From: a virus
IMG/VR virus record: IMGVR_UViG_3300028569_002586
Coordinates: 1-64,000 of that record
Length of the DNA: 64,000 nucleotides
Strand: one strand, 5' to 3'
Shown here: positions 2,153 through 36,036 of the stretch, one piece after another
Numbering within the stretch: the stretch's first letter is position 1
Layout of the letters: the number at the start of each line of letters is the position of its first letter
Notes under the pieces: model-generated
The model's database searches: none
Seen by the model: only the letters and a program-made list of their open reading frames with translations
What the model was told of the DNA's origin: nothing
Program-made: the position numbers and the translations under genes

Positions 2153-3406
2153 GTGAAAATATTCATATCCATTGCTTCCTACCGTGATCCACAACTGCCC
2201 ATAACTTTAAAAAATTGCTTGCAAAATGCCAAGCATCCCGAAAATCTAAGATTTTCTATTTGTTGGCAGAAAGATGAAACAGAAAACTTGGATGAGTTTA
2301 TTAATGACAAGCGGTTTACTATTATTCCTGTGGATTACAGAAAAGGCGAGGGTACATGCTGGGCTAGAAGCTTGATTCAAGAACATTACAAGAAAGAGCA
2401 GTATTACATGCAATTGGACAGTCACCACCGTTTTGAGAAACATTGGGATGAGACCTGCATTGGCATGATCAAAGATTTGCAAAAAGCTGGTTACAAGAAA
2501 CCCTTGCTGACTGCTTATATCCCTAGCTTTGATCCAGACAATGACCCTGCTGCAAGAATACATGTGCCATGGAAAATGAACTTTGATAGGTTTATTCCAG
2601 AAGGTGCAGTATTTTTCTTGCCTGCATCCATAGACAATTTTAAAGAATTGTCTCAGCCTGTGCCTGCAAGGTTTCTCTCAGCTCACTTCATCTTCACTCT
2701 GGGCAAATGGTGCAAAGAAGTGCCTTATGATCCTTATTATTACTTCCATGGTGAGGAGATCAATCTGGCTGTCAGGTCTTATACCTGGGGCTATGACTTG
2801 TTTCACCCTCACAAGGCAGTTGCTTGGCATGAATACACTAGAAAAGGCAGAACCAAGCATTGGGATGACGACAAGGAATGGCACATACGCAACAATGCAT
2901 CACACTTGAGAAACAGAAAACTGTTTGGCATGGATGGTGAAAAGAAGGACGTTGACTTTGGCAAGTATGATTTTGGTACCAAGAGATCATTGGCAGATTA
3001 TGAGAGGTATGCTGGTCTGTCCTTTGCAAAGAGAGCAGTGCAGAGATACACCATTGACAACAACAATCCACCCAATCCTGACAACTTCAAGAGTCAGGCA
3101 GAGTATGAGACCTCATTCTTGAAAATATTCAAGCATTGCATTGATATTGGATTGGCACAAGTGCCTGAAACTGATTATGACTTCTGGTGTGTGGCATTCA
3201 AAGACAAAGATGGCAAAGATGTGTACAGAAAAGATGCTGATAAAGATGAAATTGTGAGAATGAAGAATGATCCAGACAACTACTGCAAAGTGTGGAGAGA
3301 GTTCAATGCAGAAGAGTTGCCTGTGAGCTGGATTGTGTGGCCTCACAGCATAAGCAAAGGCTGGGCAGAGCCCATTACTGGTCAACTCAACAATGTGATA
3401 AGCTAA
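2153..3406 (+). CDS. GT60-family (Skp1/Gnt1-like, Pfam GlcNAc-type) N-acetylglucosaminyltransferase
   Basis: IFISIASYRD, ARSLIQ, MQLDSHHRF (DxH), FHGEEINLAVRSYTWGYDLFHP motifs; start moved from 2006 to GTG 2153 because the upstream part overlaps the tmRNA and its promoter. Confidence 0.85.
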   Translation: MKIFISIASYRDPQLPITLKNCLQNAKHPENLRFSICWQKDETENLDEFINDKRFTIIPVDYRKGEGTCWARSLIQEHYKKEQYYMQLDSHHRFEKHWDETCIGMIKDLQKAGYKKPLLTAYIPSFDPDNDPAARIHVPWKMNFDRFIPEGAVFFLPASIDNFKELSQPVPARFLSAHFIFTLGKWCKEVPYDPYYYFHGEEINLAVRSYTWGYDLFHPHKAVAWHEYTRKGRTKHWDDDKEWHIRNNASHLRNRKLFGMDGEKKDVDFGKYDFGTKRSLADYERYAGLSFAKRAVQRYTIDNNNPPNPDNFKSQAEYETSFLKIFKHCIDIGLAQVPETDYDFWCVAFKDKDGKDVYRKDADKDEIVRMKNDPDNYCKVWREFNAEELPVSWIVWPHSISKGWAEPITGQLNNVIS

Positions 3407-4096
3407 ATGAATAGCTTTGCAAAAGAAGTTATCAAAAGAGCTTATGAGCTCAAAACAACTTCTGTTGCATGGAGAACCACCAGTTTGACTGGAGATGATC
3501 ATACGTTCAGGCGTTCTAAACCTGCTCCTTTTTTAAAGTTCTTGTATGGCATTAACAAGGACTATCCTTTTAAGAATATTGTTGAAATTGGATCTAACCG
3601 TTATGCTGTGACACAAAAATGTGTAGATTACTTCTTCCAGGAGCATCATGCCACAGAAGCACCTGCTTGCTGTGCAGATGGTCACTCCACATATTTCTTC
3701 AGTCTATTTGGTGGCAATGTACACACAGTGGACATAGATGTCAGTAGAATTGATTCTATCAATCATTGCTACCAGCATTTAAACCAGCAAGTTCCTTGTA
3801 ACCTTCACATACACATACCCAAAGATGGTATTGAGTTTTTAAATGAATTTAATGAGTCTATTGATTTGTTATTCCTTGATGGTTGGGATGTGGGTACACA
3901 TGACTATGCAGAGAATCATTTGCTAGCTTACCGCGCTGCTAAGGATAAGCTATCAGAAAATTGCATAATTGGCATAGATGACACAGATTTCACTGGTGAA
4001 GTGTCAGGTAAAGATAAATTATTAGGTGCAGCTCTTATTGAAGAAGGTTATGTACCATTCATCAAAGGAAGACAAGCACTCTTCATAAAGGTTTAA
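3407..4096 (+). CDS. class I SAM-dependent methyltransferase (Methyltransf_24-like)
   Basis: NIVEIGS, VHTVDID, DGIEFL...IDLLFLDGWD, IGIDD motifs. Confidence 0.75.
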   Translation: MNSFAKEVIKRAYELKTTSVAWRTTSLTGDDHTFRRSKPAPFLKFLYGINKDYPFKNIVEIGSNRYAVTQKCVDYFFQEHHATEAPACCADGHSTYFFSLFGGNVHTVDIDVSRIDSINHCYQHLNQQVPCNLHIHIPKDGIEFLNEFNESIDLLFLDGWDVGTHDYAENHLLAYRAAKDKLSENCIIGIDDTDFTGEVSGKDKLLGAALIEEGYVPFIKGRQALFIKV

Positions 4097-4097
4097 T

Positions 4098-33938: not shown

Positions 33939-33984
33939 ACCCTTATGTCTCCTGTGATAAAATGATGGTCATACATATAATTTA

Positions 33985-36036
33985 TCATGATATGGCTCCT
34001 AAATACTGTCCTGTGCCTCCTGGAGTCACAGCATAGCCATTCAGATTAATACATTTACCAGCAGCACCACCTCCGTAGTTTGATGTCTTTGACCCAGCAC
34101 AACCAGCCCCCGCGCCCGCAGCTCCTAAGCTTCCACCAGCTCCCAATAGCTGGGCGCCTTTGGCACCGCCTGTTTTGTAAGTACCAGCACCACCATTACC
34201 GTTCGAACCGCCTGTACCTGCAGTACCAACTGTAATACCCGCGCCACCAGCTCCTGAACCACCTCCACCAGGGCATTGTTGATATACACCGCACCAAGGC
34301 CAATTACACCCACCTGATCCACCACCACCACCGCCAATAATGCCACTATTTTGTATAGTTAGATTATAATTTAAATTGATGGCAGGTCCACCAGCTCCAC
34401 CACTTGAGTTTGTTCCCCCAGCATTACCACCTTTGCCAGCTACCATACCATTAGCAGGTGAATTTGTTGCATCAGATACTGCAGGTACAATGAGCGTAAC
34501 AGTGGACCCCGCAGGCCATACACCTGTGTCCAATGCAGCAGTTGCAGAAGAAGAACTACCAATGTTGCCTGCCACAGTGAATTCCACATTTCTTGCACCT
34601 GCAGGCACTCCGTAGGTTGCCACATATGCATCATACAGATTCACATTGTTGGTGTTGGTACTGGCTGCACCTATTGTCACAGATTGTGTGGTGGGCGATG
34701 CAGTAGGTGTCACTGTGGGTGTGGGTGTGCGTGTCACTGTGGGGGTGGGTGATACTGAAGGTGTCACAGTGGGTGTCACAGTTTTTGTAGGTGTTACAGA
34801 AGGTGTAGGTGTCATGGTGGGTGTTTTTGTAACTGTAGGTGTGTTTGTTGGTGTGGGAGTTGGTGAAGCGTCCATTGTTTTGGTGGGGGTGACTGTGGGT
34901 GTGAGTGACACAGATGGTGTCACAGTGGGTGTTCTGGTGGGGGTGGGTGTCATGGTGGGTGTTCTGGTGGGAGTGAGTGTGGGCAATACTTTGAGACGCA
35001 AAGAATATGGCACTTTTCTGCTTGTGATCAGATAAGCAGATCCAGGTTGCATCACGGTCAATGTATTTTCAATTTGCAATGGATCATATTCATCAAATTC
35101 AACAAGTGAGGATTGATCTGTGCTGGTGCCAATCACCTTGATGGTGTTGCTCATATCTATGCCAGGTAGATAATTTTCATAGTCTATATTTTGAATGTAC
35201 TGAACATATTCAGTAATTTGCACATTGGCAAAAATGGGTGTGGTGGTTGGAGTAACTGTGGGTGTAGGTGTCCTGGTAGGTGAAACTGTTATGGAGGGTG
35301 TAACTGTGGGTGAGACTGTTTTAGTAGGTGTCACAGTTGGAGTGACTGTTTTAGTAGGTGTCACAGTTGGAGTCATTGTAGGGGTAGCAGTAGGGGTAAC
35401 TGAAGGTGTTATAGTAGGAGTTATAGTAGGTGTAACAGAAGATGTTGGTGTTACTGTAGGGGTTACTGTAGGTGTAGGTGTTTGAGTGGGTGTAGGTGTA
35501 GGGGAAGGAGTTGGGCAAAGATTAGACTGAGCTACAGTTGGCAGTCCACCAAAGGTACTACCAAAACCTGTAGCTACTGTACAGTAATAGACTGTGCCTG
35601 TAACAAGTATACCTAAAGAATTGAGAGTGAGGCTAGGTGCAGTACTACCAAGAAAATACCAACTCACCATGCTAGCACAATAATCAAATGTAGTGTATGG
35701 TATGATGGTTATATTTTTGCCAATGGTAATAGTTGTCATGTAGCTACAGTCACTAAATACCTGAGTGCCAAGGCTAGTAACACCATTGCCTATGGTTGCA
35801 CTGATTAGATCCTGGCAGTTCATGAACGCTGAATTTCCAATACTTGTCACATTGTCAGGAATAATGAGACTGGTTATCCGTGTACTAGCAAATGCAGAAT
35901 TACCAATACTGGTTACTTCATTACCAAATGTAACTGCGATTAATGGTGATGGCACAAATCTATTATAACTACTTTGTGTTATAATGGTATCAGTACTGGT
36001 AGAAGTGGTACCATTAAGATAATAAAATGTTGTCAT
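33985..36036 (-). CDS. adhesin-like protein: BspA-type LRR + PT linker + shared anchor domain + PT linker + gp38-like glycine-rich tip
   Basis: VTSIGNSAF..C..L.S.TIGNGVTSLG repeats; C-terminal VAGKGGNAGG...GGAGGPAI...LTIQNSGIIGGGGGG. Confidence 0.8.
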   Translation of the reverse strand: MTTFYYLNGTTSTSTDTIITQSSYNRFVPSPLIAVTFGNEVTSIGNSAFASTRITSLIIPDNVTSIGNSAFMNCQDLISATIGNGVTSLGTQVFSDCSYMTTITIGKNITIIPYTTFDYCASMVSWYFLGSTAPSLTLNSLGILVTGTVYYCTVATGFGSTFGGLPTVAQSNLCPTPSPTPTPTQTPTPTVTPTVTPTSSVTPTITPTITPSVTPTATPTMTPTVTPTKTVTPTVTPTKTVSPTVTPSITVSPTRTPTPTVTPTTTPIFANVQITEYVQYIQNIDYENYLPGIDMSNTIKVIGTSTDQSSLVEFDEYDPLQIENTLTVMQPGSAYLITSRKVPYSLRLKVLPTLTPTRTPTMTPTPTRTPTVTPSVSLTPTVTPTKTMDASPTPTPTNTPTVTKTPTMTPTPSVTPTKTVTPTVTPSVSPTPTVTRTPTPTVTPTASPTTQSVTIGAASTNTNNVNLYDAYVATYGVPAGARNVEFTVAGNIGSSSSATAALDTGVWPAGSTVTLIVPAVSDATNSPANGMVAGKGGNAGGTNSSGGAGGPAINLNYNLTIQNSGIIGGGGGGSGGCNWPWCGVYQQCPGGGGSGAGGAGITVGTAGTGGSNGNGGAGTYKTGGAKGAQLLGAGGSLGAAGAGAGCAGSKTSNYGGGAAGKCINLNGYAVTPGGTGQYLGAIS

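Follow-up and report, generated by a model that had tools for sequence, protein, structure and literature searches.

O-glycosylation of the mucin type, on Pro/Thr repeats, is considered a trait of the eukaryotic secretory pathway. Glycans of this type are started on Thr/Ser in Pro/Thr-rich repeats by enzymes of family GT60 in protists and GT27 in animals (PMC8724618, PMC7185993), the characterised GT60 enzymes being protist polypeptide alpha-N-acetylglucosamine (GlcNAc) transferases that initiate mucin-type glycans (PMC8724618). Both families perform O-glycosylation of polypeptide Ser/Thr and share a DxH signature in place of DxD, and GT60 is restricted to prokaryotes and protists (PMC7185993). 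Here we analyse a five-gene operon led by a GT60-type gene (positions 2153-7652, plus strand) in a stretch of 64,000 nucleotides, hereafter the window, which is the first 64 kb of the 157-kb IMG/VR viral record IMGVR_UViG_3300028569_002586 (ca. 74% complete), the genome of a distant T4-like myovirus. From comparative sequence analysis and structure models, we consider it rather probable that the operon is a phage cassette for cytoplasmic protein O-glycosylation, acting on (PTxT)n linkers in tail-fibre and baseplate adhesins of the same phage. Virion glycosylation in phages and giant viruses, mucin initiation by GT27 and GT60 in eukaryotes, and glycosylation of serine-rich adhesins are known already; what would be new is the link between GT60 and Pro/Thr (PT) repeats in phages and bacteria, and literature searches found no paper in which GT60 is connected with phages or with PT repeats of bacteria.

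In mycobacteriophages, the C-termini of capsid and tail-tube proteins are reportedly modified. Glycosylation of these virions by phage enzymes was described by Freeman et al. 2023, according to the part of PMC12582341 that cites that work. Both there and in the jumbo phage XacN1, phage glycosyltransferases are thought or shown to modify the virion proteins of the phage itself in the cytoplasm, as proposed here, and XacN1 moreover shares with the present phage a pair of GT60 and P0005-type enzymes (see below) as well as PTxT linkers. The closest functional analogue in bacteria is the system of the Gram-positive serine-rich repeat adhesins (GtfA/GtfB plus accessory glycosyltransferases), in which O-GlcNAc is initiated in the cytoplasm on long Ser/Thr repeats and strain-variable extending glycosyltransferases are encoded beside the substrate. 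It differs in its GT4 initiator of GT-B fold, in repeats that are rich in Ser instead of PTxT, in accessory Sec export and in being non-viral. In giant viruses (PBCV-1 A064R, Mimivirus R699-type enzymes), virion glycans are built by virus-encoded multi-domain GT-A proteins that include methyltransferase domains and do not depend on host machinery; these viruses have eukaryotic hosts, other acceptor sites and glycans, and neither a GT60 initiator nor PT repeats.

The first-pass annotation had described an operon of five genes, and the five plus-strand open reading frames (ORFs; 2006/2153-3406, 3407-4096, 4098-5273, 5275-5964 and 5961-7652) are tightly packed and abut or overlap. The five ORFs of the cassette are the following:

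2153-3406, plus strand: P0001, glycosyltransferase of family GT60 (PF11397) with GT-A fold, DxH motif and a beta-rich C-terminal domain of ca. 120 amino acids (aa), by Pfam, PHROG, AlphaFold2 and Foldseek; proposed N-acetylhexosamine (HexNAc) initiator on PT-linker Thr.
3407-4096, plus strand: P0002, possible class-I S-adenosylmethionine-dependent methyltransferase, a tentative assignment (Methyltransf_24 at 20.8 bits, below the cut-off of 26.3; phrog_24975, without assigned function).
4098-5273, plus strand: P0003, tentative accessory glycosyltransferase with a DUF6165-like N-terminal region and a GT-A (GT2-like) domain, both below cut-off.
5275-5964, plus strand: P0004, methyltransferase of the FkbM family (PF05050, E 1.6e-9; TIGR01444, 63.6 bits, above cut-off).
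5961-7652, plus strand: P0005, two tandem GT-A domains, one HtrL_YibB-like and the next with an invariant E-D-D (HtrL_YibB, E 2.6e-14; AlphaFold2; Foldseek); proposed elongating or polymerising enzyme.

P0001 matched PF11397 ('GlcNAc'), which we take to correspond to CAZy GT60, with 231 bits (cut-off 21 bits; E 3.5e-68) over profile positions 2-43 and 94-351, and phrog_24687 with an E value of 2.6e-165. Its AlphaFold2 model (predicted local distance difference test score, pLDDT, 95.2; predicted TM-score 0.91) retrieved from the Protein Data Bank (PDB) with Foldseek ca. 45 top matches that were all polypeptide N-acetylgalactosaminyltransferases (ppGalNAc-Ts) of GT27 (E 7e-11 to 1e-8), the first other enzymes (GlfT2, B4GALNT1) appearing at ca. 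1e-7. Sequence and profile searches of PDB chains with P0001 gave nothing significant; the informative search was that of the fold only. D138-S-H140 (P0001 numbering) and one downstream His are invariant across 40 aligned homologues, and the C-terminal beta-rich domain is conserved. Profile, fold and motif thus agree with the assignment to GT60 that had been made from the letters of the sequence. In family signal, GT-A fold and DxH, P0001 is the same as the protist GT60 enzymes (Dictyostelium pp-GlcNAcT/modB, Trypanosoma cruzi OGNT) and animal GT27. The eukaryotic enzymes, on the other hand, are Golgi type-II membrane proteins with secretory substrates, whereas P0001 is soluble and would act on virion parts in the bacterial cytoplasm, and it carries its own C-terminal beta domain where GT27 has a ricin lectin domain. 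Neither a signal peptide nor a membrane segment was seen in P0001-P0005 on reading by eye. Virion proteins, too, are made in the cytoplasm.

The proposed substrates are encoded on the opposite strand, in a tail-fibre module (30043-36036) whose four ORFs hold ca. 520 residues of (PTxT)n linker, out of 679 linker residues in six proteins of the whole genome. These ORFs and the module upstream of them are as follows:

33985-36036, minus strand: P0009, proposed substrate, with a BspA-type leucine-rich repeat (LRR) head, PT linker (35221-35520), middle domain, PT linker (34672-34962) and C-terminal Gp38-like Gly-rich adhesin head (LRR_5, E 1.6e-20; GP38, E 2.2e-8; tail-fibre PHROGs).
32136-33938, minus strand: P0008, with an RCC1 beta-propeller head, PT linker (32526-32909), middle domain and PT linker (32139-32288) running to an in-frame TAA (RCC1-like, E 3.7e-49).
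30963-32120, minus strand: P0007, with a PT linker (31911-32120), cupredoxin-like domain, PT linker (31491-31610) and Cys-rich C-terminal domain (phrog_677, 'baseplate wedge tail fiber connector', E 1.7e-23).
30043-30825, minus strand: P0006, a 227-aa domain with a 33-aa C-terminal PT tail (30046-30144), from its translation; a late box precedes its GTG at 30825.
46789-48651, minus strand: gp6-like baseplate wedge (phrog_219, E 1.9e-41).
36033-48651, minus strand: module of baseplate and fibre genes located upstream of the PT genes, with the gp6-like wedge, 1148-aa and 1051-aa proteins and a 1380-aa LRR protein; LRR and MBG domains.

All six PT stretches previously noticed in the sequence were recovered from the translations and by a scan for PT runs, close to where they had been placed. 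They had been assigned to three structural genes, a count to be corrected to four ORFs under translation table 11, since an in-frame TAA splits P0008 from P0007. The linkers consist of 38% T, 26% P, 10% V and 8% S (against 4% P and 7% T in the proteome), with PTKT among the commonest tetrads, and their PTxT periodicity resembles the PTVT spacer of Dictyostelium PsA. A DNA pattern encoding PTxTPTxTPT (hereafter the PT pattern) occurs 17 times in the 157-kb genome, and the same pattern reversed, used as a control, does not occur. The PT genes lie between the gp6-like wedge gene and tail-fibre genes, several proteins of >1000 aa being encoded, together with the tail-fibre genes, downstream of the wedge gene. 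By their domain architecture P0006-P0009 look like modular adhesins with a putative structural role. Pfam recognised no domain in P0006 or P0007, and the central domains of P0008 and P0009 are weakly similar (25% over 52 aa, pairwise E 5e-4).

A genomic link between the two components was found in viral relatives. In 18 IMG/VR relatives, whose GT60 proteins are 72-75% identical to P0001, and in genome G019, the cassette lies inside the tail-fibre module. The order on one strand, as read in loci L003-L022, is gp6-like wedge, proteins of ca. 1150 and ca. 1047 aa, PT-linker protein, GT60, variable genes, P0005 homologue, PT-tailed P0006 homologue and a protein of ca. 1100 aa. The immediate neighbours of the cassette have PT runs at both ends in 11 loci and at one end in 7, while PT runs are present in only 5.3% of the genes of at least 150 aa in the viral loci examined, and in 16 loci the P0006 homologue is downstream of the cassette, directly after the glycosyltransferase genes. 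Phage-encoded glycosyltransferases are in this way genetically linked to Ser/Thr-rich structural genes in at least 18 relatives.

The co-occurrence of GT60 and PT linkers across phage genomes, proposed as a check in the first-pass annotation, was borne out by a comparison of viral records. The PT pattern was present in 22 of 25 GT60-positive records and in 5 of 20 related or T4-like records that lack GT60 (Fisher p = 3.5e-5, kinship ignored), the jumbo phage RAS14 being scored positive on one match only. When the comparison was restricted to complete GenBank genomes or records at least 90% complete, the figures were 12/12 and 0/8, respectively (p = 8e-6, again ignoring kinship).

The pair of GT60 and P0005-type genes was also found, at full length and 37-39% identity, in the jumbo phages XacN1 and RAS14. 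The XacN1 cassette, which includes a carbamoyltransferase, adjoins the genes of the baseplate wedge and an ORF of 3313 aa that contains a PT stretch, and ORF370 and ORF372, located beside the sheath genes, contain PTxT linkers of up to ca. 200 aa. XacN1 virions contain at least two Schiff-stained glycoproteins, for which the authors suggested phage glycosyltransferases as the makers, naming no glycosyltransferase family, substrates or linkers (PMC5852040). The same cassette is only a few kb away from DNA polymerase and RNase H genes, and DNA-modifying glucosyltransferases are well established in phages (cited in PMC5852040), which would fit glycosyltransferases that hypermodify bases of the phage DNA as a protection against restriction. 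We regard this as very improbable, given that the fold and family of P0001 are those of polypeptide transferases, that the cassette is without hydroxymethylase or base-modifying genes, and that GT60 associates with structural genes and PT repeats.

The association extends to bacteria. Full-length GT60 homologues, 36-60% identical, were found in chromosomes of Bacteroidota, Gemmatimonadota, Acidobacteriota, Verrucomicrobiota, Planctomycetota, Actinomycetota and several proteobacterial classes. The PT pattern is rare in such genomes, with 20 clusters in 25 of them (ca. 128 Mb), and 7 of these clusters are at most 8 kb from GT60. In 80 bacterial GT60 loci (1.09 Mb) the pattern was present in 17, where scanning 25 of these genomes in full predicts 0.11 (Poisson 1e-31); reversed as a control, it matched nowhere in the loci. 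PT-repeat genes are enriched roughly 100-fold beside bacterial GT60. In a subset of 20 genomes, picked mainly for contig size, three clusters fell in the loci against 0.03 expected (p = 4e-6), and with a protein-level detector a PT-run ORF or the pattern was found in 30 of the 80 loci and in 1 of 32 matched control windows drawn from those genomes (p = 1e-4). Short contigs of metagenome-assembled genomes (MAGs) could include mis-binned phage DNA; at least 9 of the 17 loci are on contigs of >60 kb. Four further PT sites located 10-13 kb from GT60 (G051, G052, G057 and G058), on contigs whose identity is unconfirmed, were left out of the count.

The PT-repeat genes located beside bacterial GT60 include:

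L273, 11900-14389: PT-repeat gene.
L319, 11127-13178: PT-repeat gene.
L253, 4349-7649: PT-repeat gene.
L285, 4819-5457: PT-repeat gene.
L312, 1524-2036: PT-repeat gene.

In Paraherbaspirillum soli, the sole PT-pattern site in 4.7 Mb is the C-terminal (TP)n linker of a VgrG spike protein of the type VI secretion system, 3 kb from tandem GT60 genes. The PT neighbour of GT60 is a sheath-like protein in Azospirillum and, in a Saprospiraceae MAG, a mucin-like protein that carries a sorting domain of the type IX secretion system (T9SS) and is encoded beside a sulfotransferase of 691 aa. Small PT-repeat proteins whose signals are twin-arginine-like share an operon with P0005 and GT60 homologues. The nature of these neighbours suggests that glycosylation would take place in the cytoplasm, ahead of assembly or of export by the twin-arginine translocation (Tat) pathway. 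In our view, nothing argues more strongly for the repeat as the substrate of GT60 than these loci, because GT60 and the PT repeat are all that they share.

Exported PT proteins beside bacterial GT60 also mean that hosts may have targets of their own, and the phage enzyme could modify some other protein instead: either PT-rich surface or secreted proteins of the host, or hydroxyproline produced by PhyH-type dioxygenases, in the manner of Skp1. The Gnt1 branch of GT60 modifies a hydroxyproline of Skp1 in the cytoplasm, the activity on which the PF11397 description is based. Pro makes up 26% of the linkers, and the window contains the following candidates:

11006-12362: two genes for 2-oxoglutarate-Fe(II) dioxygenases of the PhyH type.

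PhyH, however, is distinct from the prolyl 4-hydroxylase family, and its homologues are not among the window genes that recur in GT60 neighbourhoods. Moreover, the linkage of GT60 to phage structural genes with PT repeats favours virion targets, and Thr in PTxTP suits the preference of the GT27/GT60 polypeptide transferases (PMC8724618). A different protein target is, on this evidence, quite unlikely.

A late-type box bears on the timing of expression. The box TA3-4TA[AT]T is found 3-10 nt upstream of 38 ORF starts, which amounts to 47% of its 81 occurrences (13% at random positions), and the genes preceded by it include many structural ones, such as P0006, the genes of the 1111-aa and 1051-aa proteins and that of an Mtd_N protein. 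A box of this type, TAAAATAAT, is located 4 nt before the GTG at 2153. This GTG, already taken as the start of the operon in the first-pass annotation, is the true start of P0001, because alignments with homologues (413-425 aa) begin at residue ca. 51 and because of this box. The canonical T4 late promoter TATAAATA was not enriched (8 matches against 6 expected). The distribution of the box suggests late co-expression of GT60 with virion genes. As a separate observation, a near-identical stretch of ca. 35 nt in two places (29760-29815 and 30826-30880, minus strand), ending in TTTAAATAATTA(A/T)A, immediately precedes the start codons of both P0006 and the 1111-aa gene, and probably represents a late promoter or leader element present in more than one copy.

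The composition of the cassette can be examined in the viral loci. Of 80 viral GT60 loci, 72 have a P0005 homologue, as do XacN1, RAS14 and 28 of the 80 bacterial loci, and the order GT60, zero to eight variable genes, P0005 homologue is observed in 57 of 79 viral loci, on a single strand in 56 of them. Homologues of P0002 and P0003 are present in only 8 and 12 of the 80 viral loci, respectively, and GT25-like, PLOD-GT-like and GT1-like enzymes or a carbamoyltransferase take the middle positions in relatives. Since the pair is conserved and the middle genes vary, the cassette can be described as a putative initiator/extender pair around diversifying decorating enzymes. Two methyltransferases had been counted in the operon: P0004 stands, with a possible role in O-methylation of the glycan, and P0002 is tentative, given its sub-threshold score. 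Similarly, of two supposed glycosyltransferase fusions, P0005 holds as HtrL_YibB followed by a second domain of GT-A fold, while both parts of P0003 score below their cut-offs (DUF6165, 24 bits against 27; Glycos_transf_2, 19.7-21.2 bits against 23.3); an NCBIfam search added nothing for P0001-P0003. The C-terminal half of P0005 was not recognised by Pfam and its fold is assigned from the AlphaFold2 model (pLDDT 85), which displays two GT-A-like domains, with W-x-D in the first and the invariant E-D-D in the second. The closest PDB matches of the model are glycosyltransferases of tandem or bifunctional type, namely Mimivirus R699 (the best structural match), LARGE1, LH3, the heparosan synthase PmHS2 and the chondroitin polymerase K4CP, and superpositions on them are poor (TM-scores 0.22-0.28, large root mean square deviation) because the domain orientation differs.

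A cassette of this composition might also remodel a host envelope glycan during infection (lipopolysaccharide (LPS) core, O-antigen, capsule or another lipid-linked glycan), blocking superinfection or preventing sticking to debris, with the PT linkers being plain spacers. The HtrL_YibB domain is named from a gene of the E. coli LPS-core region, and HtrL/YibB together with GT8/GT25-type genes are classically tied to LPS synthesis, GT8 and GT25-type genes being present in the window and in the cassettes of relatives; this also counts against linker glycosylation. Besides, the content of the cassette varies as in O-antigen clusters, tail-fibre regions are insertion hot spots, and the PHROG category of the GT60 family (phrog_24687) is 'moron, auxiliary metabolic gene and host takeover'. 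On the other hand, no lipid-carrier component (phosphoglycosyl or polyprenol-phosphate transferase, flippase, polymerase, ligase, GtrA/GtrB) was detected with Pfam, NCBIfam or PHROGs in the cassette of the window or in those of relatives, many genes of which match no family. The fold of P0001 is nearest to the polypeptide-modifying GT27, and the late-type box and the position within late structural operons suit a virion role over an early host takeover. Host-glycan remodelling would leave unexplained both the 12/12 against 0/8 co-occurrence in phages and the GT60-PT linkage across bacterial phyla, including VgrG and sheath-like proteins, and we consider it unlikely.

In the mechanism that we favour, that of linker glycosylation, P0001, as a soluble GT-A enzyme with a DxH metal site, would put HexNAc (most likely GlcNAc from uridine diphosphate (UDP)-GlcNAc) on Thr hydroxyls. 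In each PTxTP unit a Thr has Pro at position -1, +1 or +3, the context preferred by GT27 enzymes. The primer sugar would be extended by P0005, possibly as a repeating unit, and the glycan decorated, with further sugars added and methylated, by the products of the middle genes, here the GT-A fusion and one or two methyltransferases (P0003, P0004 and perhaps P0002), and in relatives GT25-like and PLOD-GT-like enzymes and carbamoyltransferases. Modification would occur before or during tail assembly, under late-type transcription, and the glycosylated linkers would form extended stalks between binding heads. The substrates would be P0006-P0009 and probably also two PT-stalk proteins encoded at 148-154 kb of the genome. 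The proposal that the phage glycosylates its own PT linkers, as put forward in the first-pass annotation, draws comparative support from the kinship of fold and motif with ppGalNAc-Ts, the synteny, the co-occurrence in phages, the enrichment in bacteria and the staining of XacN1 virions; for this particular phage we infer it, as we do the sugar, the acceptor, the timing and the effects on stiffness, protease resistance and host recognition.

Several observations weigh against this mechanism. The co-occurrence tests are phylogenetically uncorrected and many of the records are fragmentary; three GT60-positive records (39%, 54% and 86% complete) have no PT pattern, and five GT60-negative ones, all of them fragments, do have it. 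No PT gene directly flanks the cassette in 61 of 79 viral loci, and the PT-flanked arrangement is confined to one clade and may thus reflect few evolutionary events. The cassette of the phage studied here is separated from the PT genes by 27 kb and lies on the opposite strand; from its position in relatives, it has apparently moved into a variable slot. The box ahead of GT60 is one A longer than the common form, and in the Foldseek search GT27 leads the other GT-A enzymes by only some three orders of magnitude. To our knowledge, the characterised GT60 enzymes are all eukaryotic and none is prokaryotic. Finally, the Schiff-positive bands of XacN1 are not assigned to particular proteins (PMC5852040).

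The GT60 family is large (>6,800 proteins in the first search; 4,409 clusters at 50% identity; 316 IMG/VR loci), environmentally abundant and genomically tied to PT-repeat proteins in phages and many bacterial phyla. It is possible, and we would put it no higher than that, that GT60 and the P0005-type enzyme form the core of a widespread and undescribed cytoplasmic 'mucin or proteoglycan' system of prokaryotes, in which GT60 primes Thr, its partner polymerises, and methyl-, carbamoyl- and possibly sulfotransferases decorate. Its substrates would be phage tail fibres, parts of contractile injection systems (VgrG and sheath-like proteins) and mucin-like proteins exported by Tat or T9SS in at least eight bacterial phyla, phages using it to coat adhesin stalks. 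If the GT60-PT link is functional, tail fibres coated with glycan would be a common feature of freshwater T4-like and jumbo phages, with a bearing on host recognition, resistance to proteases and shear, antibody recognition and the prediction of host range from tail fibres. It would also imply a new cytoplasmic route of O-glycosylation in bacteria, and the evolutionary origin of the GT27/GT60 mucin initiators would become testable. The representative search with P0001 also rendered many GT60-domain proteins of 800-2460 aa with two to four matched stretches, that is, multi-GT60 or GT60-fusion giants.

The slot at ca. 2 kb, occupied by the cassette in the present genome, is itself a hot spot. 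The closest syntenic relative (G018) carries there a GT60 paralogue, 34% identical (L248 2047-3291), two unrelated minus-strand genes replace the rest of the operon, and there is no P0005 homologue.

As for the PT-linker genes themselves, the TAA that separates P0008 from P0007 (32136-32138, minus strand) is in frame inside one continuous linker that both ORFs share, and no start signal was found ahead of the GTG of P0007 at 32120. Recoding of this stop codon was considered and rejected, TAA being the commonest stop of the genome (120 of 185). The TAA could reflect readthrough giving two isoforms, a nonsense mutation or an assembly error. Residues ca. 71-170 of P0007 (31610-31910), in the cupredoxin-like domain, show a ligand pattern like that of type-1 copper sites (H...C-x2-H-x2-M), within a protein of the tail-fibre module. 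Outside the window, at 148199-153652 of the genome (L167 8200-13653), three consecutive proteins share a common N-terminal tag of ca. 30 aa and two of them run on into PT stalks of 73-88 aa; these proteins are likely to be further substrates or virion decorations.

The nearest cultured relatives of the phage (cyanophages, pelagiphages and others) show only 26-40% identity, and a nucleotide search with positions 1-25000 of the window against GenBank phages gave no match. Two other regions of the window deserve mention:

62138-63907: tail sheath gene (phrog_23, E 7e-68).
11006-20156: a second modification island, mostly with a GC content of 0.29, comprising the two PhyH dioxygenase genes, a sulfotransferase-like gene, a GT8 gene, an AsnB-like amidotransferase, a class-I methyltransferase, a radical S-adenosylmethionine/SPASM enzyme and several family-less ORFs.

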